Positions 708 through 45,109 of a stretch of 64,000 bases of DNA are shown in pieces. Position 1 is the stretch's first letter. Every line of letters starts with the position of its first letter. The notes under the pieces were generated by a model that was not told the origin of the DNA, did no database searches, and worked only from the letters and a program-made list of their open reading frames with translations. The DNA lies in NCBI GenBank assembly GCA_965228345.1, contig CBDDHH010000004.1, positions 663,133 through 727,132 on the forward strand, given 5' to 3'. The position numbers and the translations under genes were made by a program. The stretch is from Alphaproteobacteria bacterium. Lineage in GTDB: Bacteria; Pseudomonadota; Alphaproteobacteria; UBA7985.

Positions 708-1088
708 ATGGCTGATCTCGATAAACTTGTAAAAGACTTAAGCACCTTGACGGTTTTGGAAGCCGCCGAACTGGCAACCAAGCTGGAAGAAGAGTGGGGC
801 GTTTCCGCTGCTGCGCCCGCGGCCGTTGCGGTCGCCGCGCCCGCTGACGGCGGGGGTGCCGTTGCCGAAGCCCAGACCGAATTTGACGTTGTCTTGGCCT
901 CCGTCGGGGGCAACAAGATTGCGGTCATTAAAGAGGTCCGCAGCGTCGTCGATGGCCTGGGCTTGAAAGAAGCCAAAGAGTTGGTCGATTCTGCGCCCAA
1001 GGCGATCAAAGAAGGCGTTTCAGAGGCCGAAGCCAACGAAATTAAAGAGAAGTTGGAAGCTGCGGGCGCTTCGATCGAAATCAAGTAA
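708..1088 (+). CDS. rplL: 50S ribosomal protein L7/L12
   Basis: [33 protein letters not shown]...Ala-rich hinge...[40 protein letters not shown] is the canonical L7/L12 architecture. A GAGGAA Shine-Dalgarno precedes it. Its TAA stop overlaps the TA at the MITE boundary. Confidence 0.95.
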
Positions 1089-1286
1089 TACCAACGGCAA
1101 AAAAAGTTGACACGTTTTTTGCCGTTTTATGTCTCGCGGCAGAAACGCTTCGCGTTTCGCCTCCGATGGGGCCTTCGCTTATGCCCCGAGGCGCGTGTCC
1201 GCTGTTCTCGGGCCGCTACGGGGGCCGCAGTCGCGCGGCCCTTATACCAGCGAACATAGGAGTCATTCTCAGTCGCCGCTGGTATA
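1088..1286 (+). mobile_element. MITE copy R1 (IS630-related multi-hairpin element)
   Basis: Left TIR ATACCAACGGCAAAAAAAGTTGACAC and right TIR region ...CGCCGCTGGTATA. Internal hairpins GGCAGAAACGCTTCGCGTTTCGCC and GGGGCCGCAGTCGCGCGGCCC. Sits on the rplL stop codon. Confidence 0.8.
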
Positions 1287-1516
1287 AGCACGCGCGCTTA
1301 GGAATTTATGATTTGGAAGAGGCCGTTTTCGGCCGTAGAGTCCGCGTGTTTTTTGGCACGAGTCGTCTTGTTGATGGGGTGTCCCTTGTGGGGTGACGTT
1401 CTTCCGCGCGGAATCCATCGCGGGTTGGAGACGGTGGAGACCACCTCGTCAGGCTTTGACCTGCCGCCCGTTTAGAGAAGGAAAACGGGAGTTTCATACC
1501 AGTTTTCCTTGAGAAT

Positions 1517-1777
1517 GACTCTTTATGAACTGGTATAATACCAGCGGCGATTTAAAATGACTCTTTTATTCGCTGGTATAAGGGCCGCGACTGCGGCCCC
1601 CGTAGCGGGCTCCAAGCCCGAAGGGCGCAGGGAACGCCAGCGCCAAAAACAAGCGGCCCCGAGATGAGCTAAGAAAGCGCCTCGGGGTATAAGCGAAGGG
1701 GCGGCGAAACGCGAAGCGTTTCTGCCGTGAGACATAAAACGGCTAAAAAAGTGTCAACTTTTTTCGCCGTTGGTATA
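1517..1777 (-). mobile_element. MITE copy R2 (inverted orientation, partial terminal-hairpin duplication)
   Basis: Near-identical to copy R7 (31507..31746). Ends ...TTTTTTCGCCGTTGGTATA. Contains the same GGCGAAACGCGAAGCGTTTCTGCC hairpin. Confidence 0.8.
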
Positions 1778-2002
1778 AGGTGTCGGGGGCGCTTTGTCTC
1801 ATTCCCGAAACGAGTCTGCGATCATGCCAAAGGGCGTTTCACAATTTCGCGCTTCGTGAACCTTGCGCAGGTGTGCGCTCACGAATTTTTCTGAGCCTTT
1901 GGCGAAAGACGCCGCGCCGGGCGCTGGCCCCGCTTGGGTTCCGGAGGCAAAGTGGGGGGCGTCGCAAGTTCGCGGTGCCCTTCAATCTATAGGAGACATG
2001 AC

Positions 2003-2434
2003 ATGTACAAAGCAGCCTTCACTCTTATTTCATCTCTTGCCTTAACTGTCGGTGTGGCCTGGGCCGATACCTTGCAGGTCAAAGTTACGATCCCAGAAGG
2101 CGATCGCAAGCTCGGTGCACTCAGGGTGGGTGTTTTCAAGTCGCAAGCACAATTTGATACTGGAGAGCCCGAGCTTGGGCTGATGCAAGAAGCGGTTCAT
2201 GGCGAAAACACGATCGCGATCGCGGATCTGCCTGCGGGCACTTACGGGCTTTCGGTGTTTCTTGATCGCAACGACGATGAGGAACTGAATAGTGGCCTAT
2301 TTGGCGCGCCCAGCGAGCCTTACGGATTTTCGCGCAACCCCACCATTCGCTTTTCCGCCCCCAAGTTCGATGACTGGAGCTTCCAATATGGTGGAAGCGG
2401 CGGCGAATTGGTTGTCGATTTGCTCGGGATCTAG
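2003..2434 (+). CDS. DUF2141 family secreted protein (signal peptide)
   Basis: AGGAGA Shine-Dalgarno 6 nt upstream of the ATG at 2003. N-terminal signal peptide MYKAAFTLISSLALTVGVAWA. Conserved GAPSEPYGFSRNP...PKFDD core resembles DUF2141. Confidence 0.6.
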   Translation: MYKAAFTLISSLALTVGVAWADTLQVKVTIPEGDRKLGALRVGVFKSQAQFDTGEPELGLMQEAVHGENTIAIADLPAGTYGLSVFLDRNDDEELNSGLFGAPSEPYGFSRNPTIRFSAPKFDDWSFQYGGSGGELVVDLLGI

Positions 2435-2436
2435 TC

Positions 2437-3969
2437 GTGGATCGCCGGACTCTATTGAAAGGCGCGGCGGCAGGAACGCTCGCCGCGCCCGCACTGTCGC
2501 TGCCACTGTGTGCCCAATCGACCCCCGAACAAGCGCGGTTCGATGCCTTTGCTGACGCCTTGGAGGCCAAGCCCTGGCTGCGGGGGTTTGTTGGCGCGCA
2601 GGTGTTGCAAACCCAGACCGCCATGGAAACGGTCCATGGGCAGATGCCGGAGGGTTTGCAAGGGGCCTTATTTCGCAACGGCCCTGCCTACCATGACATA
2701 GGCGGGGAGCGGTTCGGTCACTGGTTCGATGCTCCAGGCATGGTGCAGAAGTACACGATCGGGGCGAACGGAGTGCAGCACAAGGGACGCCTGATCGAAA
2801 CCGCGCGCAATCGCCGTGAATTGACGCAGCAGCGCATGCTCTTTGAGGCCTTTGGTACCAAACGCACCGACCTAGGCTCGGGCGGGTCGGCCGATGGCCA
2901 AAATGTTGGCAACATCAGCATCTTGCACCATGCAGGGGAACTGATGGCTACGTGGGAAGGGGGGTCGGCCCATGTGCTCGATTCCGAAACGCTGGAAACC
3001 GTGGGTCGCAAAGACTGGTCACTCGAGACGACGGGCGCGCCGTTCAGCGCCCATACACGCCATGACCCAGATGGGAATCTCTGGTCGATCGGCTATTCGA
3101 TTGCACCCGCCGGGCTGCTACTCTACCACATCGACGCTGCTGGCGCGCTGCAGCAGGTACGGGCGATCCCGTTCGATGCCGCGCCCATGATCCACGATTT
3201 TGTGGTGACGGCGACCAAGCTGGTGGTGCTGGTGCCACCCTTGCAGGTCGATCACCTCGACGAGGAAGCCAGCATTCTCGGCCTCTATTCCTGGCACGGA
3301 GATCAGCCGACGCGGGCTTTGATATTTGACAAGGCCGACCTGAGCCTCACGCAGGAAATTGAGCTCGACCCCTTTTGGGTATTTCACTTCGGCAATGGCT
3401 ACGATAGCGGTCCCGACGAGATCACCCTGGACCTGACCTTGCACGAAACGCCTGACTTTATGCTGGATACTGCATTCGCAATGATGGATGGGTCTTGGGA
3501 CGGCCACGTTTCGACCGAGGTTGTTTACACCCAGATTCGTCTGAATTTGCGCACGGGCCGAAGCCAGATTGAGACCGTTCCCGAGTTGCAAACGGCAGAA
3601 TTTTTGAAGATCGACCCCCGCGCGAGTCTAGGTGACCATCGCCACACCCTCATGCTAACACTGCGGCAGGCGGAGCGAGACGCCGCCGCGCCGCCGTGGT
3701 TTGGCCAGCTTGCACTCTACGATCGCCATAGGGAACGCCTCCAAACCTATCGAGCCGCTGATACGGAGATGATGGAGGAGCATGTCATGGTTCCCAAGGC
3801 TTCCGGCGGGGACGGCGTTTGGCTCCTGGGCAGCAGTCAAGACTGGGCCGAAGGGGCTACCTACCTGTCTGTTTACGATGGCGCCGCCCTCGCAGCGGGC
3901 CCTGTCTATCGTGCGCGCCTGGAGGGGACTCTGCCGCTAGGACTGCACGGGCACTTTGTCTCGGGTTAG
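2437..3969 (+). CDS. Carotenoid cleavage oxygenase family protein (RPE65/lignostilbene dioxygenase-like) with Tat signal
   Basis: GTG start. Twin-arginine motif RRTLLKGAAAGTLAAPA. His-containing motifs FDAPGMV / HHAG / FHFGNGY / HGHF typical of carotenoid oxygenases. ~510 aa. Confidence 0.8.
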   Translation: MDRRTLLKGAAAGTLAAPALSLPLCAQSTPEQARFDAFADALEAKPWLRGFVGAQVLQTQTAMETVHGQMPEGLQGALFRNGPAYHDIGGERFGHWFDAPGMVQKYTIGANGVQHKGRLIETARNRRELTQQRMLFEAFGTKRTDLGSGGSADGQNVGNISILHHAGELMATWEGGSAHVLDSETLETVGRKDWSLETTGAPFSAHTRHDPDGNLWSIGYSIAPAGLLLYHIDAAGALQQVRAIPFDAAPMIHDFVVTATKLVVLVPPLQVDHLDEEASILGLYSWHGDQPTRALIFDKADLSLTQEIELDPFWVFHFGNGYDSGPDEITLDLTLHETPDFMLDTAFAMMDGSWDGHVSTEVVYTQIRLNLRTGRSQIETVPELQTAEFLKIDPRASLGDHRHTLMLTLRQAERDAAAPPWFGQLALYDRHRERLQTYRAADTEMMEEHVMVPKASGGDGVWLLGSSQDWAEGATYLSVYDGAALAAGPVYRARLEGTLPLGLHGHFVSG

Positions 3970-3976
3970 GGGTCTA

Positions 3977-4168
3977 ATACCAACGGTCATAAAAAGTGAC
4001 CTTTTCATGTCCGTTTCGTGTCTCACGGCAGAAACGCTTCGCGTTTCGCCGCCCCTTCGCTGATACCCCGAGGCGCTTTCTTAGCTCATCTCGGGGCCGC
4101 TACGGGGGCCGCAGTCGCGGCCCTTATACCAGCGAATAAATGAGTCATTTTAAATCGCCGCTGGTATA
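3977..4168 (+). mobile_element. MITE copy R3
   Basis: TAATACCAACGGTCATAAAAAGTGACC left end, ...TAAATCGCCGCTGGTATAAG right end, same internal hairpins. Confidence 0.8.
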
Positions 4169-4519
4169 AGAACGCATCTCGGGGACATAAGCGGAGACTT
4201 CGTCCTGCGGTCGGGCTGAGCACGCAATTGTTAACATGCTAACAATCTCGTTACAAACTTGTGCAATTTGTAGTTTTAAAATGGGACGAGAACTTGTAAA
4301 GTAACGAAGATCGCGGATGGCAGACAACAGGAGGTTGTTCGCACTGCGGTGCGGGAAGTGAACAGTGGATTTTCGAGCGGGAGGCAAGGGTCGGACGACC
4401 TCAGTTTTGCTCGGTCCCTGGCTTGCGACGCCTAGTCGCACAACGCAACGTGCCGTCCGAGGTTTATGGAAACGCGCTTTTGGCATCAATAAGGCGTGAA
4501 TATCTTTGGGAGATTTAGA

Positions 4520-4924
4520 ATGAAACGAAACAGTCGCTTATTCCTGGCCCTGCATACTCTCAGTCATATGGCTGGAGACCCCGATCGGGTGCGCACCTCA
4601 AGTGCCATCGCCGCACACGCAGGCACCAATCCCGTAGTTGTGCGCCGCGTGCTTGGGAAGTTGCGTCATGCTGGTATGCTGGTATCAGAGAAAGGCCATT
4701 CTGGCGGCTGGCGATTGGCCAAGGAGCCCGAAGAGATTAGCCTAGCTGATGTCTATGAGGCCTTGGGCGAGCGATTGGTAGTGGGCAACGACAACGAGCA
4801 TGACGACGTGGACTGCGCCGTGGAGCACGCTGTCCACCAACGTCTTGTTGACGTTCTTAAGACAGCAGAGAAGAACCTGGTTGAAAGCCTTTCCAAGACA
4901 CGCATTTCAGAAGTTCCTGCCTAA
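4520..4924 (+). CDS. Rrf2 family transcriptional regulator
   Basis: MKRNSRLFLALHTLSHMAG...SSAIAAHAGTNPVVVRRVLGKLRHAGMLVSEKGHSGGWRLA matches the Rrf2 winged-helix N-terminus. Lies in lower-GC DNA. Confidence 0.75.
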   Translation: MKRNSRLFLALHTLSHMAGDPDRVRTSSAIAAHAGTNPVVVRRVLGKLRHAGMLVSEKGHSGGWRLAKEPEEISLADVYEALGERLVVGNDNEHDDVDCAVEHAVHQRLVDVLKTAEKNLVESLSKTRISEVPA

Positions 4925-5018
4925 GGCCAATAGACCCGCTTCACGATAAACTGAAAAAGGGCTTTTGCATGCAAACAAGGTCTTGTCGAAGTCAGGTTTG
5001 GCTGATTCTAGCCTTTTT

Positions 5019-5873
5019 ATGAGAACCTTCAAAATCCTTAAGAAGCAACCGCGCCTGTTTTTCCGCTTAAGTGGGATAAGGGTCAGCGATTTTGACGACA
5101 TTGCAGAGAAGATTTTGCCGCTTTGGGAGGCTCACAACCATCAGCGTCTATCTCGCCCCCATCGCCAACGCGCGATTGGGGGCGGGCCAAGCCATAAGCT
5201 AAGCTTTGAGGAGATGCTGCTTTTATGCCTGATCTATTATCGGACTTACATCAATCATGAGTTTCTGGGTTTGATATTTTCGGTTTCAGATAGCACGAGC
5301 ATCCGAACCGCCAATACAATGACCAAGCTATTGGCAGGCCATTTTCAGATGCCCGAGCGCAGGCTTGCTTTAAGTGAGGATGATAAGGAGCAGCTCATAT
5401 ATCTGATTGTCGATGGGACCGAGCGCCCCTGTCAGCGCCCCAAGAAATCGAAGGGCCGAAAGAAGATCTACTCGGGGAAAAAGAAGCGCTTTACTCATAA
5501 GCATCAAATTGTCGTCGATGATAAGAAGCGCATTCGTGCTTGTGGCCCCGTTCACCCTGGGCGCAAGCACGACAAAACCCTTTATGATCAAAGCCATCTG
5601 GACAAGCCACCAGATACCCTGCTCTTGGGCGACTTAGCTTATGTAGGAACCAACTGCGAAGTCCCGATAAAGAAATCCAAGAACCAAAATCTAAGCCAAG
5701 AACAAAAAGACTACAATAAGTGGTTCAGCTCTATGCGCGTGAAGGTTGAGCATGGCATTGGACGCATGAAAAAGTTCAACATTTTCTCTGACATCTCCAG
5801 AGGAAACCGACATGAGAACATGATTGCTAAGAATGTCGCGGCTCTGGCAAACATCAATTTAAAAATTTGCTGA
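5019..5873 (+). CDS. DDE_Tnp_4 (Harbinger/PIF-like, IS5-related) transposase
   Basis: LLCLIYYRTY...YLIVDGTERPCQRP...KHQIVVDDKKRIRACGPVHPGRKHDKTLYD...LLGDLAYVG...VEHGIGRMKKFNIFSD pattern of DDE_Tnp_4 transposases. Low-GC context. Start uncertain. Confidence 0.65.
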   Translation: MRTFKILKKQPRLFFRLSGIRVSDFDDIAEKILPLWEAHNHQRLSRPHRQRAIGGGPSHKLSFEEMLLLCLIYYRTYINHEFLGLIFSVSDSTSIRTANTMTKLLAGHFQMPERRLALSEDDKEQLIYLIVDGTERPCQRPKKSKGRKKIYSGKKKRFTHKHQIVVDDKKRIRACGPVHPGRKHDKTLYDQSHLDKPPDTLLLGDLAYVGTNCEVPIKKSKNQNLSQEQKDYNKWFSSMRVKVEHGIGRMKKFNIFSDISRGNRHENMIAKNVAALANINLKIC

Positions 5874-6268
5874 GATAAGCACTAAGGGACAAGTCCGTCT
5901 GTGCTCTTTCTCCCTATTGCGAATCAGGTCTAGTTTTTCCAAAGAATCGATCACCTGGCCAGGACAGCGCGGATCCTCAAGGCGACCTACCAGCCACGAG
6001 ATGATGTCCGAACGGCCCAGCAGCTCGCGCTGCACAAGGGCACCCCCATCTCCGCCAAGATGCTCGGTCCGGCTCTCCACGGAAAGATTCCGGTTGAATG
6101 ATGTCGTGAATAGAGATAGTGATCCACCCATGGCGTGGCTCGGTCCTAGCGGTCGTTTCTTGTTCTAGAACCCTGATTCTAAAGCCTTTCCCGCGTCACG
6201 CCATACAAATCATCCGATCAACCGTGAATAGGACGGGATCACAGTAATTTTTTTGGAGGAAGTCAGAC

Positions 6269-7432: not shown

Positions 7433-7505
7433 CCTAATATGGGTTGATGGGGCTGGATGCGTCCAGCCTCATCGCTTTTGCATGTCTCTTTCAAGTTTGT
7501 AACTT

Positions 7506-11074: not shown

Positions 11075-11077
11075 CTC

Positions 11078-13307: not shown

Positions 13308-13911
13308 ACCGGGGTTCGTCACCCTACGCGCAGGAACCTTCGGCGGCAAACGCCTGCCAATCCCTGCCGACGGGTCTGTGCGCCCGACCACCGACCGCGC
13401 GCGCGCCCAGGCCTTTGATTTGCTCGACCGACACTTCCGCTTTGTAGATGGCCGCGGCCGCTGGTCCACGGCGCACGTTCTCGACGCCTTTGCCGGCACG
13501 GGCGCGCTGGGGTTCGAAGCGCTTAGCCGCGGCGCTAAAACGCTGACCCTTTGGGAGATCAACCCGCGTCAAGCCGCTGCGCTTGCCCAAACCGCCCGCA
13601 GCTTCAAGACTCGGCGGGTGCATGTCAGGGAACAAGATGCTCTCAACGCCCCCGTGCCCGCCACCGCCGCAGATCTGGTGTTTTTGGACCCCCCCTACGG
13701 GCGCGCCTTGGTCGGCCGTGCCCTTGAAGTCTTGGTTCGACAGGGATGGATTTCGGGCCATACCGTGATCTATGCGGAAACCGAAGCCACGGCGCGCCAA
13801 CCAGACGGCTATGAAGTGTTGACCGAACGTACCACCGGAAAGTCGGTAGTTCGGATTCTTATGCGGGCGGTAGCGCCGAAGACTCTCTATACCAGCGGCG
13901 ATTTAAAATGA
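13297..13911 (+). CDS. rsmD: 16S rRNA (guanine966-N2)-methyltransferase RsmD
   Basis: LDAFAGTGALGFEALSRGA (SAM-binding) and VFLDPPY motifs. The last ~7 codons (…TLYTSGDLK*) are supplied by the MITE R4 terminus. Confidence 0.8.
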   Translation: MAAKPGFVTLRAGTFGGKRLPIPADGSVRPTTDRARAQAFDLLDRHFRFVDGRGRWSTAHVLDAFAGTGALGFEALSRGAKTLTLWEINPRQAAALAQTARSFKTRRVHVREQDALNAPVPATAADLVFLDPPYGRALVGRALEVLVRQGWISGHTVIYAETEATARQPDGYEVLTERTTGKSVVRILMRAVAPKTLYTSGDLK

Positions 13912-14086
13912 CTCTTTTATTCGCTGGTATAAGGGCCGCGACTGCGGCCCCCGTAGCGGCCCCGAGATCGGCGCGAAAGCGCCTCGGGGTATAAGCGAAG
14001 GCCCCGTCGGAGGCGAAACGCATCGCGTTTCTGCCGTGAGACACGAAACGGCCATGAGAAGGTCACTTTTTATGACCGTTGGTATA
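13889..14086 (-). mobile_element. MITE copy R4
   Basis: CTATACCAGCGGCGATTTAAAATGACTC...GACCGTTGGTATAAG. Overlaps the rsmD 3' end. Confidence 0.8.
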
Positions 14087-14250
14087 AGACGGGATGAGCG
14101 CATTGCTTCGTGCCTTGTCCCTGTATCAATTGCTCCGATCAGCTTGTTAGCTGCTACAGCCAAGGCCCTCGGGATCGGTGACTTGCAAAACTTCCTTAAG
14201 ATCCTCAGTGTCTAGGGATAGCAACTTGAACGGTCGCTGGTTGTCGCGAC

Positions 14251-27634: not shown

Positions 27635-27661
27635 ACGTGCCAAAGAACGCCGTGAGTCCTT

Positions 27662-27887
27662 ATACCAACTCCGCTAAAAATTGACATTTTTAGCGGAGTT
27701 TTGTCTCACGGCAGAAACGCGTTGCGTTTCGGCTTTTGGGGTTGCGGTCTCACCTCGCTCGCTCAGCCCGACCGCGCCTTCGCTTATACCCCGAGGCGCT
27801 TTCTTAGCTCATCTCGGGGCCGCTACGGGGCCGCAGTCGCGGCCCTATACCAGTTCATAAAGAGTCTGTTTTAAGGAGAACTGGTAT
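27662..27887 (+). mobile_element. MITE copy R5 (variant with CTCGCTCGCTCAGCC segment and alternate terminal hairpin)
   Basis: CTTATACCAACTCCGCTAAAAATTGACATTTTTAGCGGAG...ATACCAGTTCATAAAGAGTCTGTTTTAAGGAGAACTGGTATTAG. Confidence 0.75.
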
Positions 27888-27897
27888 TAGACTTAAC

Positions 27898-29580: not shown

Positions 29581-30996
29581 GTGTCCATCGCGACCGGTCC
29601 CCTTGTCCATTGCCTTACCAACGCCGTCACGGCAGGGTTTGTGGCGGACTGTGTCGCAGCAGTCGGCGGGCGGCCCCTCATGGCCGAAGACCCGCGCGAA
29701 TGCGCACAGCTGGCCGACTTGGCCGACGCGCTGGTCGTCAATCTGGGTCAACTCGACCCCCGCAAAGAAGAGGCTATTTGGGCTGCGGTGCGCGCGCGCG
29801 GTCATCGCCCCTGGACCCTCGATCCCGTCGCGGTCGGGGTTTTTCCGTCGCGCTTGACCCTTGCCCAGCGCCTTCTCTCCGCGCATCCACCAAACCAAAT
29901 TCGCGGCAACGCCAGCGAAGTATGGACTCTGGCGACGTGCCGCCCGAGCGGGTCGGGAACCGAATCAACCCAGCGCGCGCTAAAAAAACCAAAGCGCTTG
30001 CGCGATAGGCTTGCGGCGCGCGAAATCTGTGTCACCCAAGCGGACCAGCGGCCAGGCAAGCGCGATCTGTGCCTGGCTGGTGACCAGGAAACCTGGTACC
30101 CTGGCGGTTCACCGATTATGGGACAACTGCCCGGGTTCGGCTGCGCCCTATCAGCGGTTGCCGCAACCTTGCAGTCGGGCGACCGGGCCCTTAGTCTGTT
30201 CGGCGAGGTGGGCCGCGCGGCGGGGCGCGCTGGCATGGGTGCCTTCCGCGGGGCCTTTGTCAGCGCCCTAGCCAGCGCTAACCGCAAGACCCGCGCCCGC
30301 GCCGCCCTGCCCCTCTACTTTGTCGCAGGGCCGCAGGATTGCGGCGGTTCGCATGAGCGGCTGTCCAAAATATTGGCGGCGGCCCTCGCGGGCGGGATAA
30401 CCGCTTATCAATATCGCCCCAAGGCAATGAGTTCCAAGGTCGCGCGGTCCGCTGGGAGAACTCTCAGGGCCCAATGCGCGGCGGCGGGCGTGCCATTCCT
30501 GGTTAATGACGATCTCGACTTGGCCCTCGCCCTGGACGCCGACGGACTGCACTTGGGTCAAGGCGACGGGGATCCACAGGCGGCGCGCGCTGCCCTCGGC
30601 CCGCAGGCGATCCTGGGCCTATCAATCAGCAGCCCTGACCATTGGGCCTCTTATCGGGCTGACTGCGTTGACTATGCTGGCCTTGGTCCTTACGCCGATA
30701 CCGTCACCAAACCCGACCATAGGGCCCCCCTTGGTCACAGAGGGATGCAGCGCCTGCGAGCTTTGCGCCCTGAGGTACCCGCTGTAGCAATCGGTGGTGT
30801 TGGATTGTCCAACCTGCATCAAGCGTTAACAACGAGCGTAGATGGGGTCGCAGTCGTCAGCGCTCTGACCTCTGCGGATAAACCTGCAGAGCAAGCCCGC
30901 ACTCTTGCGGCTCTTATTTACGCAACAAAATCACACGGCTCGGAAAGCCGCCAGGCCGCCGATTTTGGGGTAGCTACCGCAAAATCGACGCATTAA
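29581..30996 (+). CDS. Bifunctional hydroxyethylthiazole kinase (ThiM, N-terminal) / thiamine-phosphate synthase (ThiE, C-terminal) fusion
   Basis: N-terminal LVHCLTNAVTAGFVADCVAAVGGRPLMAE...IRGNASEV...GFGCALSAVAA are ThiM motifs. C-terminal LYFVAGPQD...HLGQGDG...AIGGVGLSNL... is ThiE-like. Single continuous ORF, 6 bp after dctP-2. Confidence 0.65.
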   Translation: MSIATGPLVHCLTNAVTAGFVADCVAAVGGRPLMAEDPRECAQLADLADALVVNLGQLDPRKEEAIWAAVRARGHRPWTLDPVAVGVFPSRLTLAQRLLSAHPPNQIRGNASEVWTLATCRPSGSGTESTQRALKKPKRLRDRLAAREICVTQADQRPGKRDLCLAGDQETWYPGGSPIMGQLPGFGCALSAVAATLQSGDRALSLFGEVGRAAGRAGMGAFRGAFVSALASANRKTRARAALPLYFVAGPQDCGGSHERLSKILAAALAGGITAYQYRPKAMSSKVARSAGRTLRAQCAAAGVPFLVNDDLDLALALDADGLHLGQGDGDPQAARAALGPQAILGLSISSPDHWASYRADCVDYAGLGPYADTVTKPDHRAPLGHRGMQRLRALRPEVPAVAIGGVGLSNLHQALTTSVDGVAVVSALTSADKPAEQARTLAALIYATKSHGSESRQAADFGVATAKSTH

Positions 30997-31000
30997 GCTT

Positions 31001-31160
31001 ATACCAGTTTTTATAAATGGTGACCCATTCATGAAGATTTTTGATGTCACGGCAGAAACGCTTCGCGTTTCGCCTCCCCTTCGCTTATGCCACGAGGCAC
31101 TTTCTTAGCTATTCTCGGGGCTGCTACGGGGGCCGCAGTCGCGGCCCTTATACCAGCGGC
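31001..31160 (+). mobile_element. MITE copy R6 (variant left end ATACCAGTTTTTATAAATGGTGACCC), merging into the IS630-family left terminus
   Basis: Shares the GGCAGAAACGCTTCGCGTTTCGCC and GGGGGCCGCAGTCGCGGCCC hairpins. Its right end is the TTATACCAGCGGCGG sequence that also begins the adjacent IS630 remnant. Confidence 0.65.
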
Positions 31161-31460
31161 GGTAGCTTTTGACTCGTAGAAGTGTTTTTTCAACTAGGTC
31201 GTATTGTGATTCGTATTTCCCGCAAACAGGAGATACCTATGGCCATAGCAATCACACGCGCAAACCATAGCGCTAAGGATTTAAGAAAGTTTGCAGCGCG
31301 GAGTAAGGATCCCAAAGTTTCGCGCCGGGTACTAGCCATAGCGATGCTTATTGAGGGTAGTTCTTGTAAGTTTGCCGGTGAATGCTACGGCATGGATCGC
31401 CAAACACTTTGTGATTGGGTTCATCGTTACAATCTCGAACAGCCCTCTGCATAAGGAAGG
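31150..31460 (+). mobile_element. IS630-family IS remnant: left TIR + truncated transposase N-terminus (HTH)
   Basis: ORF 31239..31454 MAIAITRANHSAKDLRKFAARSKDPKVSRRVLAIAMLIEGSSCKFAGECYGMDRQTLCDWVHRYNLEQ matches IS630-family N-terminal HTH regions. Preceded by ATACCAGCGGCGGTAGCTTTTGACTC, which resembles the MITE TIR. Confidence 0.65.
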
Positions 31461-31506: not shown

Positions 31507-31746
31507 GAGACCAGCGGCGATTTAAAATGACTCTTTTATTCGCTGGTATAAGGGCCGCGACTGCGGCCCCCGTAGCGGGCTCCAAGCCCGAAGGGCGTAG
31601 GGAACGCCTGCGCCAAAAACAAGCGGCCCCGAGATGAGCTAAGAAAGCGCCTCGGGGTATAAGCGAAGGGGCGGCGAAACGCGAAGCGTTTCTGCCGTGA
31701 GACATAAAACGGCTGAAAAAGTGTCAACTTTTTTCGCCGTTGGTAT
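31507..31746 (-). mobile_element. MITE copy R7
   Basis: Near-identical to R2. ...GTGTCAACTTTTTTCGCCGTTGGTAT terminus. Truncates the IS630 remnant. Confidence 0.8.
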
Positions 31747-34608: not shown

Positions 34609-35526
34609 ATGAATAGATCATCTTTGCCGTGGCATCTGCTACAGAGTTTTTTGTCCTGCCTCGATCAGGGATCGCTGAGCGCGGCGGCGGCGCGCCTCAA
34701 GCTGAGCCAACCCACCCTTTCCCGGCACATTCGCGAGCTGGAAACCTTAATCCAGGGGCGTCTTTTCGTCCGGTCCCGCCAGGGTCTTCAGTTGACCACC
34801 CTGGGGCTAGAATTGGTTGAACCTGCGCGCGCCATGGCCGACGCTGCGGCCCAGATCAGCGCCCGACTGTCGGGAGCGGGGGCGGAGACAAGGGCGAGCG
34901 TACGCCTTACCGCCAGCCAGTACATGGCGACATTCTGGTTGCCCGAGATTCTCGTGGCCTTCCAGGCGCGTCACCCGCACATCCAGATCGAGCTGGTCGC
35001 CAACGATCAGACGCACAATCTGCTGCGGCGCGAGGCCGACATCGCGGTGCGCATGTTCCGGCCGACCCAAGATAGCCTGATCACACGGCACCTAGGCCAC
35101 ATCGATCTGTGCATGTTGACGACGCGCGCCTATTTGGCGACGCGCACGCCGCCGCAAACGCCCGAGGACTTGCGCGCCCATCGCCTGATTGGCGACGATC
35201 AACGCACCCTCATTATCGACGGCTTACGCGCCTATGGGTTGCGCTTTGGGCCCGAAGACTTTGCCTTACGTTGCGACGACCAAGTGACGGCGTTGCATTT
35301 GATCGCCGCAGGTGGGGGCATCGGTTTTGGCCAAGCGCGCCTTGCCGAGCGGTTTCCTAGCCTGATCGCCTTGCCCATCGGCGACGGCGCGCCGAAATTA
35401 CCGCTTTGGCTGACCGCCCACGAAGACTTGCGCAGCAATCGTGCCGTGCGGCTGCTCTATGACTTCTTGGCTGAGCAACTGGTTCAGGTGGTGATACCAG
35501 TTCTGCTTAACAAAGACTCCTTATGA
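34609..35526 (+). CDS. LysR family transcriptional regulator
   Basis: N-terminal HTH (LSCLDQGSLSAAAARLKLSQPTLSRHIRELE) plus LysR substrate-binding domain. Divergent from the oxidoreductase. Last ~10 codons are encoded by the MITE R8 terminus. Confidence 0.85.
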   Translation: MNRSSLPWHLLQSFLSCLDQGSLSAAAARLKLSQPTLSRHIRELETLIQGRLFVRSRQGLQLTTLGLELVEPARAMADAAAQISARLSGAGAETRASVRLTASQYMATFWLPEILVAFQARHPHIQIELVANDQTHNLLRREADIAVRMFRPTQDSLITRHLGHIDLCMLTTRAYLATRTPPQTPEDLRAHRLIGDDQRTLIIDGLRAYGLRFGPEDFALRCDDQVTALHLIAAGGGIGFGQARLAERFPSLIALPIGDGAPKLPLWLTAHEDLRSNRAVRLLYDFLAEQLVQVVIPVLLNKDSL

Positions 35527-35687
35527 ACTGGTGTAGGGCCGCGACTGCGGCCCCCGCAGCGGCCCCGAGACAAGCTAAGAAAGCGCCTCGGGGTATCAGC
35601 CAAGGCCCCGTCGGAGGCGAAACGCGAAGCGTTTCTGCCGTGAGACATAAAACGGCTGAAAATGTCAATTTTTAGCGGAGTTGGTAT
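35494..35687 (-). mobile_element. MITE copy R8
   Basis: ATACCAGTTCTGCTTAACAAAGACTCCTTATGAACTGGTGTAGGGCCGCGACTGCGG...GGAGTTGGTATTAG. Overlaps the LysR 3' end. Confidence 0.8.
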
Positions 35688-35689
35688 TA

Positions 35690-36302
35690 GGGTCCGTGGA
35701 CATTAGGGATTCCCATTTCTGCAAACTTGTGTTTCAAGCTTCCAAAACGGAGGTTTCAATGAACACAGATCGCTTTGTTGTCACAGATCAACTCTGGGAT
35801 AGGATTTCAGGGTTGATTCCAGGCCGCGATGGGGTTCGCGGTGTTACTGGAGAAGATAATCGTCTCTTCTTGGAGGCTGTGCTTTGGCGGGTGCGTGCAG
35901 GGCTCCCTTGGCGAGACTTGCCGCCAGAATTTGGCAAGTGGAATACTCAATTTCGCCGTTTCCGTCGATGGGCCGCAGCAGGTGTTTTTGAGAGACTTTT
36001 TGAAGCTCTAAACCAAGACCCCGACGTTGAATACGCTCTTATCGACGGCACTATGTTAAGCGTTCACCAGAAAGCCAGTGGCGCAAAAGGGGGGCTCAAA
36101 ATCAGTCCATTGGACGTTCAAGAGGTGGATTGACGACCAAGATCGTTGCCTTGGTTGAGGGCTTAGGGAACCTGGCCCGCTTCCTTCTGTTGCCTGGTCA
36201 AGCCCATGATATGCAAGGGGTCAAGCCACTCATAGAGGGCGTCTGTTTTGATGCTCTATTGGCTGACAAGGCTTTCGATGCAGACTGGCTTCTCGAAGAC
36301 TT
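35690..36302 (+). mobile_element. IS5-family (IS427-group) element, 3'-truncated: orfA (35759..36133) and N-terminal part of frameshifted orfB (36130..36300)
   Basis: orfA MNTDRFVVTDQLWDRISGLIPGRDGVRGVTGEDNRLFLEAVLWRVRAGLPWRDLPPEFGKWNTQFRRFRRWAAAGVFERLF (DUF4096-type). orfB fragment ...LARFLLLPGQAHDMQGVKPLIEG...ADKAFDADWL. The 5' ~200 bp is near-identical to the 54827.. copy. Truncated by MITE R9. Confidence 0.75.
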
Positions 36303-36493
36303 ATACCAACGGCGAAAAAAGCTGACACTTTTTCAGCCGTTTTATGTCTCACGGCAGAAACGCTTCGCGTTTCGCCGCCCCTTCGCTGATACCCCGAGGC
36401 GCTTTCTTAGCTCATCTCGGGGCCGCTACGGGGGCCGCAGTCGCGACCCTTATACCAGCGAATAAAAGAGTCATTTTAAATCGCCGCTGGTAT
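36303..36493 (+). mobile_element. MITE copy R9 (inserted into or abutting the IS427-like element)
   Basis: CTTATACCAACGGCGAAAAAAGCTGACAC...AAATCGCCGCTGGTATTATG. Confidence 0.8.
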
Positions 36494-36695
36494 TATGCCC
36501 CAGAACTTAACCCAATGGAGAATGTTTGGGCATATCTGCGCGCAAATAAACTCGCCGTAACTGTCTTCGACACTGTTGAGCAGATCGTCGAAAAGTGTGG
36601 GGATGCCTGGAACTTCTTCACCAATGACAAACCGCCTCTCATGTCAATCACACAAAGAAATTGGATACGCGTCAATTGATCCCGCCGTTGGTATA
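36494..36695 (+). mobile_element. IS630-family IS 3' remnant: transposase C-terminus + right TIR
   Basis: Encodes ...YAPELNPMENVWAYLRANKLAVTVFDTVEQIVEKCGDAWNFFTNDKPP, the (Y)SPELNPIE..W..LK end of IS630/Tc1-type DDE transposases. Terminates CCGCCGTTGGTATAAG, identical to MITE termini. Confidence 0.6.
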
Positions 36696-36723
36696 AGACA
36701 CCCTAGACTTGCAAAAAGTAATG

Positions 36724-40152: not shown

Positions 40153-40215
40153 ATCGCGGTCCCTTTTTCAAACTTTGGACTCCACGATTGCAGAAGTGTC
40201 GCCCAAGAAAGGCAA

Positions 40216-42654
40216 GTGACTATGGCCGAACTCCCCTCGCACGCGCGTGTTGTTATTATCGGCGGCGGCATTATGGGCTGCGGCGTGGCCTATCATCTGG
40301 CGCATGAGGGTTGGACAGACCTGGTCTTGTTGGAAAAGGCCGAACTGACCTCGGGGTCCACTTGGCACGCGGCGGGGCAAATCACCCATTCCACCTCCTC
40401 CTACACCCTTGGGGCCTGCGTCGGATACAACATCGACCTCTATCGCACGGTTTTGGAACAAGAGACGGGCCAATCCTGCACGTGGCACGGCTGCGGTTCG
40501 CTGCGGCTTGCCTATACATCGGACGAGGTGGATTGGCTGCTGCAAACTCTTTCGGTGGGGCGCGCGCTTGGGTTTCCTATGGAACTGCTGACGCCCGCGC
40601 AAATTCGCGACCAGCATCCGTTCTATAAACTCGACGGGGTTTTGGCGGCGCTCCATACCCCCGACGACGGCCACGTCGATCCTGCGGGTCCTGCCTTTGC
40701 GCTCGAGAAGGGCGCGCGCCAACTGGGAACCAAAACGATCAAGCGCTGTTTGGCCGAGGCTGTTACGCAGCTGCAGTCGGGGGAGTGGCAAGTCACGACC
40801 AACAAAGGCACGATTCGGTGTGAGCATGTGGTCAACGCGGGCGGCACCTATGCGCGGCAAGTCGCCCTGACCTCGGGCTACGATCTGCCCGCCACCTCCA
40901 TGACCCACCACTATTTGGTGACCGACGCGGTGCCCGAGTTCCAGGATTTGCCCCGCGAATTGCCCGTAGTGCGCGATGATCGGCAGGTGTCGGGCTACAT
41001 AAGGATGGAGCAAAAATCGGGTCTGATCGGCATTTACGAAAAGACCAACCCCAATACAGTTTGGCAGGATTGGTGCCCGTGGGAAGCGGAAAACGAACTG
41101 TTCGAGGCTGACTACGACCGTATCATGCCTTGGCTGGAAAACGCCCTGGACCGCATGCCCGTTTTTGCCGACCTGGGCATCAAGCGCGAGGTCCACGGCG
41201 CCATCTCGCACCCGCCCGACGGCAATCCCCTGATCGGGCCGGCGCCAGGCCTGCAAAATTACTGGGTCAATGCCGGCTGCCAAATCGGGATTGGCTGGGG
41301 GCCAGGCCTCACGCGGGAACTGGCGCGCTGGATGGTCCACGGCGCGGCGGACCTGAACATGCGCGATTTTGACCCCCGCCGCTACGGCGCGTTTGCCGAT
41401 CGAACCTACCAGATCGAAAAAGCCAAGGAGGACTACGTTCTCCGTCACGAAATCCCCTTCCCCCATTTCAATCGCCATGCCCATCGCCCCGTCAAACCTT
41501 CGCCCCTCTACGAAGTTTTGAAGGCCAAAGGCGCGGTCTTCGAAGAAGTCTATGGCTGGGAACGCCCACGCTGGTTCGCCAAAAACGGCGTCGCTCAAGA
41601 GGATCACTACAGTTTCGGCCGCGCGCCATGGTTCGACTTGGTCATGGCGGAGGTCAAGGCCGTGCGCAAGGCGGTGGGCGTGATCGATATCTCTGCCTTC
41701 GCCAAGATTGAAGTTTCGGGCCCAGGGGCCTTGGCGCTGATCGACCGTCTGATTCCCAACCGCGTGCCCAGAGTGGGCCGGGTCGGCCTGACCCACATGC
41801 TCGGGAATTCGGGCCGAATTGAATTGGAAACAACGTTGGTGACCCTGGCTGAGGATCGCTTTTACCTCGTTTGCGCGGCCTTCTTTGAGCAACGCTTGCT
41901 CGACCATCTGACCAAGTATGCGAGCGGCGAAGACGTGACCATCGCCAACCTATCGGAAGCCTACGGCGCCTTGGCGCTGTCGGGCCCACGCGCGCGGGAT
42001 GTTTTAGGGCAAGTGACCGACCACAGCTTGGTCGCGCCCGCGTTCAAATGGCTGGACGCCAAGGAAATTCGCATCGCAGGCCAAAGGTGCTGGGCTTTGC
42101 GCCTGTCGTACGCTGGGGAATTGGGCTGGGAGCTCCATGTCCCCCGCGACGGCTTGGTCGCGGTCTATCACGCTCTTTCGCAAGCGGGCACCGCCCACGG
42201 ACTGACCGACTACGGATCCTTTGCCATGAACATCTTGCGCATGGAAAAAATGTTCAAGGGCTCGGGTGAGTTGACCAACGAAGTGACCCTGCCCGAGGCC
42301 GATGTCATGCGGTTTGTGAAGATGGATAAGGAAGCCTGGGTCGGCCGCGCGGCGACGGACGCGGCCCTGCGCGCACCGTTGCGCTATGTTTGTGTCTATT
42401 TGGAAATTGACAGCAATGGCAAGGCGGACGGCAACGGCGGCGAAACCGTCCTGATGGCGGGTCAAGCCGTGGGGTCGGTCTCCTCCATCGTCTATTCCCC
42501 AACCCTCGATAAGGGGCTCGCTTTTGCCTATGTAAGTCCCGAGGCCGCGCGCACGGGCCAAAGGCTGGAGGTCGTGATTATGAACGACCCGCGCCCTGCC
42601 GTCGTGCGCGATCAGCCTGCCTACGATCCCGCCAGCGAACTGCCACGCGCATGA
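40216..42654 (+). CDS. Dimethylglycine/sarcosine dehydrogenase-family protein (FAD-dependent oxidoreductase fused to GcvT-like folate-binding domain)
   Basis: VVIIGGGIMGCGVAYHLA FAD motif. ~812 aa, as expected for DMGDH-type enzymes. C-terminal aminomethyltransferase-like domain. Confidence 0.8.
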   Translation: MTMAELPSHARVVIIGGGIMGCGVAYHLAHEGWTDLVLLEKAELTSGSTWHAAGQITHSTSSYTLGACVGYNIDLYRTVLEQETGQSCTWHGCGSLRLAYTSDEVDWLLQTLSVGRALGFPMELLTPAQIRDQHPFYKLDGVLAALHTPDDGHVDPAGPAFALEKGARQLGTKTIKRCLAEAVTQLQSGEWQVTTNKGTIRCEHVVNAGGTYARQVALTSGYDLPATSMTHHYLVTDAVPEFQDLPRELPVVRDDRQVSGYIRMEQKSGLIGIYEKTNPNTVWQDWCPWEAENELFEADYDRIMPWLENALDRMPVFADLGIKREVHGAISHPPDGNPLIGPAPGLQNYWVNAGCQIGIGWGPGLTRELARWMVHGAADLNMRDFDPRRYGAFADRTYQIEKAKEDYVLRHEIPFPHFNRHAHRPVKPSPLYEVLKAKGAVFEEVYGWERPRWFAKNGVAQEDHYSFGRAPWFDLVMAEVKAVRKAVGVIDISAFAKIEVSGPGALALIDRLIPNRVPRVGRVGLTHMLGNSGRIELETTLVTLAEDRFYLVCAAFFEQRLLDHLTKYASGEDVTIANLSEAYGALALSGPRARDVLGQVTDHSLVAPAFKWLDAKEIRIAGQRCWALRLSYAGELGWELHVPRDGLVAVYHALSQAGTAHGLTDYGSFAMNILRMEKMFKGSGELTNEVTLPEADVMRFVKMDKEAWVGRAATDAALRAPLRYVCVYLEIDSNGKADGNGGETVLMAGQAVGSVSSIVYSPTLDKGLAFAYVSPEAARTGQRLEVVIMNDPRPAVVRDQPAYDPASELPRA

Positions 42655-43991
42655 GCCTGACCGATCTTTCCCCAGCTTATCCCACCCACGACGCAGATTG
42701 GGTTTCTGAGACCCATGCTGAGGCCTATGTCCAGTCTTGGTCAAAGCAGGGCATCCGCCCCCGGGTCATCGCAGGCGGCCAGGGGTCCTGGTTCTGGGAT
42801 TCCGACGGCAAACGCTACCTCGATTTTCAATCGCAGCTGGTCAATCTCAACTTGGGTCACCAACACCCCAAGATCGTCCAAGCCATCAAAGACCAGGCCG
42901 ATAAGCTGTGCTATATCGGCCCAGCCATGGGCAACGACGCGCGCTCCGAACTCGCGGCGCTGATCCGTGACATTACACCCGCCAATATCGTGAGCACATT
43001 CTTTACCACGGGCGGTGCTGCCGCCAATGAGACGGCGGTCCGTCTCGCCCGCCACTATACAGGTCGGCAGAAGATCATTGCCCGCTATCGTTCCTACCAT
43101 GGCGCCACGGGTGGCGCCCTGACGTTGACGGGGGACCCACGCCACCACTTAACCCGGGGGGACATGCCAGGGGTGGTGCGGATGTTCGACCCCTACCGCC
43201 GCGATTCCGCAGACCCCATTTATCAGGGCGGGCCGCACCTTGAGGAAATCCTCATGTACGAAAACCCCGAGACGGTGGCGGCGCTGATCTTGGAAACCGT
43301 CGTTGGAACCAATGGGATTTTGGTGCCCCCCGACGGCTATCTGCAATCTCTCGCCCAGGTATGCCGCAAATACGGAATCTTGCTGATTATGGACGAGGTC
43401 ATGGCGGGCTTCGGGCGCACGGGCAAGTGGTTTGCCGTGGACCATTGGGACCTGCAACCCGACATGATCACCGCCGCGAAAGGCATCAATTCGGGCTATG
43501 TGCCCCTGGGCACGCTGAGCCTCAGCGCCGACCTGACGCGCTGGTTGCACGACACGCCCTTCCCGGGCGGGCAAACTTATGCGGGCCATCCACTCGCCTG
43601 CGCCTCGGGGGTTGCCGCCATTCGGGCCATGCAAGCCGAAAGCGTTCTGGAGAACGCCGTCACAATGGGCTTGCTCATGCGCACCGAGCTTACAGCCATG
43701 ATTGATCGCCACCCCATCCTGGGCGAAGTTCGCGGCAAGGGCTTGTTCAATGGAATCGAGTTGGTAAAAAATCGGGAAACAGGGGAGCCATTGGTTCCCT
43801 TTGCCGCCAAGGGCGCGGCGGCGGCCCCCATGACGGCCATGATGGCCGCTGCGATGGATCGCGGACTTTACCTTTCATTCTTTTCTAACGTCATTCGTCT
43901 GACACCGCCGCTGAACATCAGCGAGGTAGACTTAAAGTATGGACTTGCGATTTTGGACGAAGTTCTGAGCGTAGGGGATCAATATGTTTGA
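42651..43991 (+). CDS. Class III (omega) aminotransferase, PLP-dependent
   Basis: LIMDEVMAGFGRTGKWFA and ITAAKGINSGYVPLG (PLP-Lys) motifs. 446 aa. Confidence 0.8.
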   Translation: MSLTDLSPAYPTHDADWVSETHAEAYVQSWSKQGIRPRVIAGGQGSWFWDSDGKRYLDFQSQLVNLNLGHQHPKIVQAIKDQADKLCYIGPAMGNDARSELAALIRDITPANIVSTFFTTGGAAANETAVRLARHYTGRQKIIARYRSYHGATGGALTLTGDPRHHLTRGDMPGVVRMFDPYRRDSADPIYQGGPHLEEILMYENPETVAALILETVVGTNGILVPPDGYLQSLAQVCRKYGILLIMDEVMAGFGRTGKWFAVDHWDLQPDMITAAKGINSGYVPLGTLSLSADLTRWLHDTPFPGGQTYAGHPLACASGVAAIRAMQAESVLENAVTMGLLMRTELTAMIDRHPILGEVRGKGLFNGIELVKNRETGEPLVPFAAKGAAAAPMTAMMAAAMDRGLYLSFFSNVIRLTPPLNISEVDLKYGLAILDEVLSVGDQYV

Positions 43992-44040
43992 TCGGAACCA
44001 AACGAAGACACATGGATGTGGGTCGTTCCATGATGCAGTT

Positions 44041-44238
44041 ATACCAACGGTCATAAAAAGTGACCTTTTCATGACCGTTTCGTGTCTCACGGCAGAAACG
44101 CTTCGCGTTTCGCCTCCGACGGGGGCCTTCGCTTATACCCCGAGGCGCTTTCGCGCCATTCTCGGGGCCGCTACGTGGGCCGCAGTCGCGGCCCTCATAC
44201 CAGCGATCATAAGAGTCATTTATAATTGCCGCTGGTAT
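44041..44238 (+). mobile_element. MITE copy R10
   Basis: ATACCAACGGTCATAAAAAGTGACC...ATTGCCGCTGGTATTAG. Its terminal TTA forms the folD stop codon on the opposite strand. Confidence 0.8.
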
Positions 44239-45098
44239 TAGAATGTCCACCCCAGTTCAACCTGACGGCGATGGGCCTTGAGCGCGTTTTGCATGAGCAT
44301 AGAGACCGTGACAGGGCCGACTCCGCCGGGGACGGGCGTGACCCAAGAAGCCATGTCCAGCGCCTCGTCCATCTTCACATCCCCGACAAGGCCGTCAGCG
44401 GTCTGGTTGATGCCAACGTCGATGACGGCGGCGCCGGGCTTGATCATGTCCCCGCCGATCAGCCCAGCCTTTCCCACCGCGACCACGAGGGCATCGGCAC
44501 GGCGGGAATGCGACGCAACAGATCGGGTCATATGGTGACAGACCGTCACCGTCGCGCCTTCCGCCACGAGCATGAGGGCGACGGGCTTGCCGACAATTTC
44601 TGAATGACCGATCATCACAACCTCCAACCCCTTCAGGGTCAGGCCCGTGGACTTGAGCAGTTCGACCGACGCCGCCGCCGTGCAGGGCAGCAGCGCATGG
44701 TCCCCATAAACGATATTGCCGATTGAGGCTGGGTTCATTCCCTCGACGTCTTTGAGGGGGTGAATCGCGCCTTGCAAGGTACGAGGGTTTAAGTGCGCAG
44801 GTACGGGACGCTGTAAAATAATACCTGTGACTTTTGGGTCATCGTTCATCGCCACCAGGCGCGCCTTGGCCTGATCCTGGCTGATATGACCGTTCCAATA
44901 CTGTTCGTCGAACGGAATGCCCACACGCTCGGCCAAGCGGCGCTGGTTACGAATATAAACTTTCACCTCCTCCACCGCACCAATAGCGATGGAACAGAGC
45001 TTCCCGATTGGGGGCAGCGCCACCAAGTCCGCTTGAACTTGTGACATAAGGCGGTCGCGCAGCGGGGCACCGCGCAGCAGTCGAGGGTCATGATCCAT
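44238..45098 (-). CDS. folD: Bifunctional methylenetetrahydrofolate dehydrogenase/methenyltetrahydrofolate cyclohydrolase
   Basis: ...IILQRPVPAHL...VVMIGHSEIVGKPVALML...VIDVGINQ...PVPGGVGPVTVSML are conserved FolD blocks. Confidence 0.85.
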   Translation of the reverse strand: MDHDPRLLRGAPLRDRLMSQVQADLVALPPIGKLCSIAIGAVEEVKVYIRNQRRLAERVGIPFDEQYWNGHISQDQAKARLVAMNDDPKVTGIILQRPVPAHLNPRTLQGAIHPLKDVEGMNPASIGNIVYGDHALLPCTAAASVELLKSTGLTLKGLEVVMIGHSEIVGKPVALMLVAEGATVTVCHHMTRSVASHSRRADALVVAVGKAGLIGGDMIKPGAAVIDVGINQTADGLVGDVKMDEALDMASWVTPVPGGVGPVTVSMLMQNALKAHRRQVELGWTF

Positions 45099-45109
45099 AG
45101 GAGCTTCTT

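Follow-up and report, generated by a model that had tools for sequence, protein, structure and literature searches.

RUP of Streptococcus pneumoniae is a miniature inverted-repeat transposable element (MITE) that has been proposed to be mobilised by the insertion sequence (IS) IS630-Spn1 (PMC2229807), and it has much in common with the MITE family that we describe here in a 64,000-nucleotide stretch of DNA from an alphaproteobacterium (contig CBDDHH010000004.1, positions 663,133 to 727,132; this whole stretch is called the window). Both are short, non-coding and abundant, both have IS630-like terminal repeats, and both lie mostly between genes and often inside other ISs (PMC2229807). RUP differs in its TA target, whereas the MITE here is flanked by TNA triplets, with a quarter of the copies lying exactly on stop codons. 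ISHsp2 of Halomonas is, like the presumed parent of the MITE here, a member of the IS630 family with a non-TA duplication; it duplicates TTAA, its authors saying that related elements duplicate TA only (PMC3606827), while the duplication here is best read as the 3-bp TNA with a free central base rather than the 4-bp TTAA. The Correia/NEMIS elements of Neisseria and the ERIC/YPAL elements of enterobacteria are also hairpin-forming MITEs that are co-transcribed in 3' untranslated regions and are sometimes fused to reading frames; they differ in sequence, parent and target (TA or variable), and the review that treats them gives no stop-codon landing (PMC2229807). Our reading of the literature on ISAli3, on IS630 elements with TNA duplication and on MITEs landing on stop codons gave nothing specific, only general MITE background and the ISHsp2 exception. 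REP elements place a stable hairpin within about 15 nt of the stop codon, and the hairpin of the MITE here begins 7 nt past the stop; unlike the MITE here, REPs have neither terminal inverted repeats nor a target duplication, and the transposases associated with them are of the RAYT (tyrosine) type.

It is our main conclusion, to which we give a probability of about 85%, that the repeats of the window are MITEs of ISAli3-type IS630 elements with a TNA target, which are tolerated or preferred at gene ends and hence are found on stop codons. An earlier note on this DNA, made from the letters alone, had noticed that the repeats sit on stop codons or rewrite gene 3' ends and had ascribed this to integration at TA by a Tc1/IS630-type enzyme. 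Most of this observation holds. The note was right on the enzyme family and wrong on the target rule, and the correct rule explains the pattern without any function. The MITE family looks confined to one lineage and stems from an IS630 clade for which the TA rule does not hold; for the coincidences noticed this is a tidy and largely ordinary explanation.

By repeat finding and direct reading, about 17 copies and fragments of one non-coding repeat family were found in the 64-kb window, with the MITEs 186-294 nt in size and 3074 bp (4.8%) of the window MITE-derived. A MITE runs from TACCA to TGGTA with a chain of hairpins between, the terminal inverted repeats being TACCA(A/G)CGGC at one end and GCCG(C/T)TGGTA at the opposite end. 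In the forward orientation, TACCAACGGCG at the A end opens a hairpin of 12-15 bp with the loop GTTGACAC; the conserved core GTCTCACGGCAGAAACGCTTCGCGTTTCGCC, with two or three more hairpins, lies 3' of this first hairpin, an internal TTA sits between the core and the terminal hairpin, and the element closes with a second hairpin, TACCAGCG...CGCTGGTA. Solo 39-nt end hairpins are present as well, at 1497-1535 and 58884-58923. The 40-nt hairpin string that the earlier note quoted gives no match at three or fewer mismatches; it approximates 45113-45153 and 1091-1131. The "long" MITE variants owe their extra length to another small repeat, some 45-50 nt in size (GGCGCGGGCGTTCCCTGCGCC...GGGCTTGGAGCCC; 45233-45280, 1600-1650), which also stands alone, as two tandem copies (2125-2225) 3' of the rplL terminator in L008, one of the loci described next.

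When the MITE core was scanned against one genome per species, at least 62 loci were found, and among the matches listed all were from one alphaproteobacterial metagenome-assembled genome (MAG), OZ245893.1 (3.25 Mb), where the core has at least 81 matches across 62 loci (numbered with the prefix L). The window and this MAG are distinct genomes, 84-89% identical in syntenic blocks. In the metagenomes of the Joint Genome Institute (JGI) neither the MITE core nor the A-end pattern has a match, and by these searches the family looks restricted to this lineage. A scan of the window with Rfam matched no family to the MITE, the sole hit at gathering score being the ALIL pseudoknot of an IS3 element; no tRNA was found in the window, and exact-protein look-ups of the products of rplL, folD and P0001 found none on record. 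The copy statistics below rest on 65 complete copies, 11 from the window and 54 from the 62 MAG loci among the matches listed. The elements are short, non-coding and multicopy, with terminal inverted repeats, with matched flanks that stand against empty sites and with ends that are shared with an IS, all of which upholds the designation as MITEs. The members of the family and the related fragments in the window are as follows.

1086..1287, plus strand: MITE 1089-1284 with flanks TAA/TAA, A end first; the left TAA is the rplL stop.
1497..1535, no strand assigned: solo 39-nt end hairpin TACCAGTT...AACTGGTA; the TAA at 1536-38 is common to it and the next element.
1536..1778, minus strand: MITE 1539-1775, long variant, flanks TAA/TAA; 99% identical to 31510-31746.
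3975..4169, plus strand: MITE 3978-4166, flanks TAA/TAA; begins 5 nt past the TAG stop (3967-69) of an RPE65-type dioxygenase gene.
13887..14087, minus strand: MITE 13890-14084, flanks CTA and TAA; encodes the last 7 codons of rsmD and its TGA stop (13909-11).
27660..27889, plus strand: MITE 27663-27886 with variant end hairpins, flanks TTA/TTA; 91 nt past an amidase stop, the orthologous site in L051 being without the element.
30999..31150, plus strand: MITE body 31002-31147 with TTA on the left; joined at the internal TTA (31148-50) to an IS630-like left end.
31151..31454, plus strand: IS630-family left end (TACCAGCGGCG...) and N-terminal helix-turn-helix (HTH) fragment 31239-31451.
31510..31745, minus strand: MITE in reverse; B end short by 2 nt, flanks non-TNA on that side.
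35492..35689, minus strand: MITE 35495-35686, flanks TGA and TTA; encodes the last 10 codons of a LysR gene and its stop (35524-26).
36301..36495, plus strand: MITE 36304-36492, flanks TTA/TTA; with a truncated IS5-family transposase gene on one side and an IS630 fragment on the other.
36493..36696, plus strand: C-terminal 61 codons of an IS630-family transposase (YAPELNPMENVW...) and right end ...CGCCGTTGGTA, then TAA.
44039..44240, plus strand: MITE 44042-44237, flanks TTA/TTA; the right TTA is the TAA stop of minus-strand folD.
45108..45350, plus strand: MITE 45111-45347, long variant, flanks TTA/TTA; it precedes the folD ATG (45098) by 9 nt and tgt by 150 nt.
50740..51025, minus strand: 280-nt variant with the same ends and a different interior, flanks TCA/TCA; upstream of a ComM/Mg-chelatase-like gene.
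58692..58926, plus strand: MITE 58695-58880 (flanks TTA, TTG), then solo end hairpin 58884-58923.
61532..61940, plus strand: variant 61535-61937 with about 250 nt inserted in the first hairpin, flanks CTA/TGA; the orthologous MAG site L071 is without the element.
63602..63640, plus strand: degenerate solo end hairpin; encodes the last codons of an HD hydrolase gene and its TGA (63615-17), 27 nt being 93% identical to 1498-1524.
63651..63802, minus strand: MITE in reverse, TAA on the left; core interrupted by an IS110-family element.

Several MITEs and solo hairpins abut with one TNA in common (1536-38, 58881-83, and copies in L016 and L040), an arrangement which suggests insertion beside resident ends.

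The ends lead to the parent. Two fragments of IS630-family transposase genes lie in the window, one with the N-terminal HTH (31239-31451) that has the end TACCAGCGGCG 5' of it and one C-terminal (36494-36676, ...PELNPMENVW...) that terminates in CGCCGTTGGTA, matching the MITE end, followed by TAA. A full-length IS is present in L044, TTA-TACCAGCGGC...CCGTTGGTA-TTA, with ends as in the MITE. Its two reading frames are joined by a frameshift at an A8 run, and the joined transposase scores 245.9 bits on NF033545, the NCBIfam IS630 model (cut-off 100), with Pfam matches to DDE_3, HTH_32, HTH_33 and HTH_29. Among named elements, ISAli3 of Azospirillum lipoferum stands nearest to it, with 57% amino-acid identity. 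Four copies of ISAli3 have the ends TACCAGCGGC...GCCGCTGGTA and the flanks TGA/TGA, TTA/TTA, TTA/TTA and TTA/TTA; two copies in Paracoccus liaowanqingii have TACCA...TGGTA ends with flanks TTA/TTA, and two in Rhodovastum have the same ends with flanks TCA/TCA and TGA/TGA, so that TACCA ends with TNA flanks are seen on nine full-length IS630-family elements in total. The suggestion of an IS630/Tc1-type enzyme is thus borne out, both by the L044 IS and by the IS630 fragments of the window, which share the MITE ends.

Like ISAli3 and its Azospirillum, Paracoccus and Rhodovastum relatives, the MITEs have termini of the form TACCA(A/G)C.GC, about 12 nt, TGACTC, and identical TNA flanks, and the in-lineage full-length transposase is read through an A8 frameshift as in several IS630 members. 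They differ in being without a protein, in an interior that is an unrelated chain of hairpins and in that each end is now a self-complementary hairpin. The MITEs are non-autonomous derivatives of an ISAli3-type IS of the IS630 family, and we infer from the shared ends that this transposase mobilised them. Since TNA flanks are found on the ISAli3, Paracoccus and Rhodovastum copies, the TNA rule belongs to this IS630 clade and the MITE follows it. Note also that in both genomes an IS630-like element is situated at the internal TTA of a MITE, at the junction of body and terminal hairpin (window 31148-31151; L044 at about 6650 in the minus-strand view), the transposase N-termini of these two elements being only 53% identical.

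The flanks and the empty sites define the target. Identical flanking triplets are found in 45 of the 65 complete copies (TTA 17, TAA 11, TCA 9, TGA 8); the base 5' of the triplet is C in 30 of these 45 and the base 3' of it is G in 20, giving a wider target context of roughly (T)C-TNA-G(A). At rplL the corresponding site of L008, with no element, is GAAATTAAGTAAGCGCAAG / AAGTAAGCG, that is, AAG-TAA-GCG as compared with AAG-TAA-(MITE)-TAA-GCA in the window. At the LysR gene the empty site in L069 is GGTGGTGACAAATGCGCCGTGA, with GGTGG-TGA-CAAATG (GGTGG TGA CAAATGCGCCGTGA) as compared with GGTGG-TGA-(MITE) in the window. On the simplest symmetric reading of these junctions, the duplication is best read as the 3-bp TNA.

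By contrast, in the earlier note it was proposed that the insertion is the classical one of Tc1/IS630 elements, duplicating TA, with the TA of TAA as the target. This would accord with the parent enzyme being of the IS630 family, and the TAA/TTA flanks of the window copies do contain TA. However, 17 of the matched-flank copies have TCA or TGA, with no TA within, and copies of ISAli3 and Rhodovastum have TGA/TGA and TCA/TCA flanks. A TA duplication around an element CCA...TGG was also tried and rejected: it needs the target TNATATNA, which is absent from the empty sites, that of rplL included. The TA duplication by which the IS630/Tc1 group is usually recognised is therefore not what these elements have, nor is it what the bona fide IS630 members ISAli3 and its relatives have, and we consider the TA target very improbable.

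Duplications of TNA or TWA are classically associated with the IS5 (IS1031) and PIF/Harbinger families. From the TNA duplication found here it could be supposed that a transposase of the IS5 family (IS1031-type) or a PIF/Harbinger-like one moves the MITEs, the more so as IS5-family transposase genes are present in the window (35688-36300 and 57614-58468). The IS5-like copy at 35688, however, begins with GGGTCCGTGGACATTAGGG and not with TACCA, its ends being unrelated to those of the MITE, and all nine TACCA-ended full-length elements encode IS630-type enzymes. To this proposal we give an even slighter chance than to the TA target, and we retain the ISAli3-type IS630 transposase with a TNA target.

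With this target, the landing on stop codons becomes simple to describe. Of the four TNA triplets, TAA and TGA are top-strand stops and TTA and TCA bottom-strand ones, and therefore every target is a stop codon on one strand. At rplL the TAA stop (1086-1088) is the triplet immediately left of MITE 1089-1284 and is repeated at 1285-1287. At folD, on the minus strand, the stop (TTA 44238-44240) is the triplet right of MITE 44042-44237, with the left copy at 44039-41. Both coincidences had been noticed before, together with a third that does not hold: the TAA of thiM-thiE (30994-30996) is off the boundary, being followed by GC, then by the flanking TTA (30999-31001) and then by TACCA at 31002.

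Taken over the 65 complete copies, the flanking triplet is the stop of a called gene (99-795 aa) in 17 (26%), with the genes called by a home-made codon-usage caller. The background, consisting of 293 TAA/TGA stops and 4064 unmasked intergenic TNA sites in the loci, gives an expected stop-codon share of 6.7% if sites are used uniformly and of about 10% if they are weighted by flank, with binomial P of about 1e-6 and 2e-4, respectively. Per TNA site, the insertion rate at stop codons (0.058) is close to that at 1-10 nt downstream (0.048), and at more than 200 nt from the 3' end it is about ten times lower (0.005); a gene 3' end is 30 nt away or less for 48% of the copies as compared with 12% of the TNA sites. 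Insertions favour convergent spacers and are scarce in divergent ones, with 17, 37 and 5 copies in convergent, tandem and divergent spacers versus 428, 1625 and 625 background sites. The stop-codon excess exceeds chance and is part of a general bias to gene 3' ends.

Two origins of this bias can be considered. One is that gene ends are actively targeted, say through a structure or a process found there, for which it can be said that the per-site rate drops steeply with distance from the stop, over the three values just given, and that the enrichment persists under flank weighting. However, the rate at stop codons matches that at TNA sites 1-10 nt downstream, a shortage like the one in divergent (5'-5') spacers would be expected if selection acted against the disruption of promoters, and the rplL target lies far upstream of the terminator hairpin. 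We regard active targeting as rather unlikely. The other origin is purifying selection, to which, we infer, the 3'-end bias is mainly due.

Several points weigh against our conclusion and should be kept in view. Standing copies leave selection and targeting indistinguishable. The caller misses some genes, so the "intergenic" TNA background includes them and the enrichment is somewhat inflated; moreover, the sample consists of 62 loci among the matches listed from one MAG, plus the window, rather than of whole genomes. Unequal flanks are found in 20 of the 65 copies, which mutation, recombination between MITEs or nesting could cause. Formally equivalent parses may fit the same sequence, such as an element ATACCA...TGGTAT that duplicates the central N alone; a 3-bp duplication seems to us the probable one among these parses.

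Based on the above, the course of events may be pictured as follows. The MITEs keep the bipartite ends of the IS (TACCA, about 16 nt, TGAC), each folded back as a hairpin, around a non-coding hairpin core. The transposase would insert them at 5'-(T)C-TNA-G(A)-3', leaving TNA on both sides. Two outcomes can then be expected in a gene, dependent on the site. If the target is the gene's own TAA or TGA, the gene-side duplicate would restore the stop and the protein would be unchanged. If the insertion is a few codons upstream of the stop, the short tail would be replaced and translation would reach a fixed stop of the element, for example the TGA ending at nt 22 from either end. Insertions at or just past gene 3' ends would be tolerated or preferred, and with such tolerance or preference about a quarter of the copies would come to lie exactly on stop codons.

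Tails that run into repeat sequence are seen in three genes of the window. The final codons and the stop of rsmD, of the LysR gene and of the HD hydrolase gene are encoded by the repeats, the tails being ..TLYTSGDLK, ..IPVLLNKDSL and ..CHTSFP, as had been observed before, and a comparison with MITE-free orthologs, proposed then as a check, gives different ends, ..RILK, ..VVTNAP and ..GLYGT, respectively. It had also been claimed that native C-termini were replaced, which holds for LysR and the HD hydrolase and fails for rsmD, where the change is a 15-residue extension with the last 7 residues encoded by the MITE. For LysR, two MITE-free relatives (97% identical) end in ...VQVVTNAP and the window protein ends in ...VQVVIPVLLNKDSL, the insertion being at an out-of-frame TGA 13 nt upstream of the native stop; the native TNAP has become IPVLLNKDSL. 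For the HD hydrolase, the MAG ortholog ends in ...AGLYGT and the window protein in ...EGLCHTSFP, YGT having become CHTSFP, and the source of the tail is the degenerate solo hairpin with 27 nt that are 93% identical to 1498-1524. For rsmD, the MAG ortholog P0002 (189 aa) ends in ...RILK, the window protein has 15 residues more, of which YTSGDLK alone is MITE-encoded, and synteny with the MAG stops immediately after the gene. In all three only a few native residues are altered, and in LysR and rsmD the Pfam domain match finishes upstream of the rewritten tail. Among the 65 complete copies, 9 have such run-in stops inside the element, often at the fixed positions +22 or +16. Recent transfer between the window genome and the MAG was considered in view of the LysR2 protein, which is 100% identical over 107 aa, and was rejected, the DNA being only 91% identical.

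It has been suggested, again in the earlier note, that the first MITE hairpin resembles an intrinsic terminator and that the elements may be retained as suppliers of terminators to the preceding genes. The resemblance is present in the forward orientation and is lacking in the reverse one, where no U tract follows. In the forward orientation the A-end hairpin has a predicted stability of -16 to -25 kcal/mol with a stem of 12-15 bp, is followed by UUUU(A/G)UGUCU and begins 7 nt past the stop, and in the single case of rplL the native terminator, intact in L008 (GAGGCCGATTTCGGCCTCTTTTTTT), is separated by about 14 nt from its T-run in the window, as would fit a supply of terminators by the element. 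Judged from these predicted structures, it is possible that forward copies terminate transcription. If retention were due to this, the forward orientation would be expected to prevail at gene ends; but the hairpin with its U tract exists in one orientation only, and the copies at or near gene 3' ends are 18 forward to 18 reverse, those exactly on stops 9 forward to 8 reverse. The folD transcript meets the opposite MITE end, where no hairpin has a U-run behind it, and one copy (45111-45347) lies 9 nt upstream of a start codon. Scans for consensus promoters and terminators gave counts near the shuffle expectation, those of terminator-like sites being slightly higher (35 and 29 in two regions versus 25 ± 6 and 23 ± 5 in shuffles), and the full end hairpin was not flagged. 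Retention as terminators is unsupported by these data, and we take it to be improbable.

Regarding the copy upstream of folD (window 45108-45120, 9 nt from the ATG at 45098), its position implies that transcription of folD starts inside the element or passes through it. On reading outward from the A end there, GTGTCA is followed after 17 nt by TATAAG, which is made of the end together with the duplicated triplet; the resemblance to a promoter is weak and was not flagged by the promoter scan.

Other mobile elements are closely interwoven with the MITEs. An IS110-family element is found at one fixed position in the MITE core, at 63803-64000 (minus strand) in the window, at 4745-5935 in L001, and in L011, L034 and L059, its transposase scoring 194 bits on the NCBIfam model "IS110 family RNA-guided transposase". 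The intact MITE reads GTGTCTCACGG at this place and the occupied one GTGTCT-(IS)-CTCACGG, with CT on both sides, the junction being the same in the four MAG loci and in the last 200 nt of the window; to judge by this shared junction, this IS110-family IS appears to use the MITE as a target present in many copies. The start of an IS5-family element (DUF4096 N-terminus) is present in two copies, 98% identical, at 35688-35921 and 54830-55063. The first copy is interrupted by MITE 36304-36492, beyond which an IS630 fragment and not the IS5 element continues, and a rearrangement between MITE copies is therefore implied. The region 54400-61940 is a cluster of insertion sequences between MAG-syntenic blocks, with two DDE_Tnp_1 transposase genes (55115-56230, minus strand, and 57614-58468), an IS3-type element with the ALIL frameshift pseudoknot (57162-57278) and an IS256/Mutator-family transposase gene (59896-61131). 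Finally, 3' of rplL (1088-1934) there is no rpoB; genes for a DUF2141 protein and an RPE65-type carotenoid oxygenase are present instead, in the same order in L008.

The finding has several consequences. Empty sites and nine full-length copies document a clade within IS630 whose target is at odds with the TA rule by which the group is usually defined, and of this we found no mention in the literature searched. An apparently purposeful siting "on" stop codons can arise from target choice together with tolerance at gene ends, no function being required. For annotation, a simple rule follows: an in-frame TAA or TGA that touches TACCA or TGGTA is the native stop, while a tail whose stop lies inside the element has been rewritten. 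Among the window genes, the three such tails gain 3 to 15 residues, and public protein sets already contain such chimeric tails, as in the 204-aa rsmD and 305-aa LysR products.

We tentatively propose, as a possibility that we hold with well under even confidence, that the ISAli3-like ISs and their MITEs may constitute a mechanistically distinct branch of IS630/Tc1-mariner, with a 3-nt stagger and a free central base, for which stop codons are neutral landing pads. If this is true, every insertion would bring its own stop codons through the TNA target, and landing on TAA or TGA stops would be neutral. Such neutral landing could allow the occupancy of about 5% of a compact 3-Mb genome, and the end hairpin placed 7 nt past the stop might change how transcription or translation ends in many genes simultaneously.

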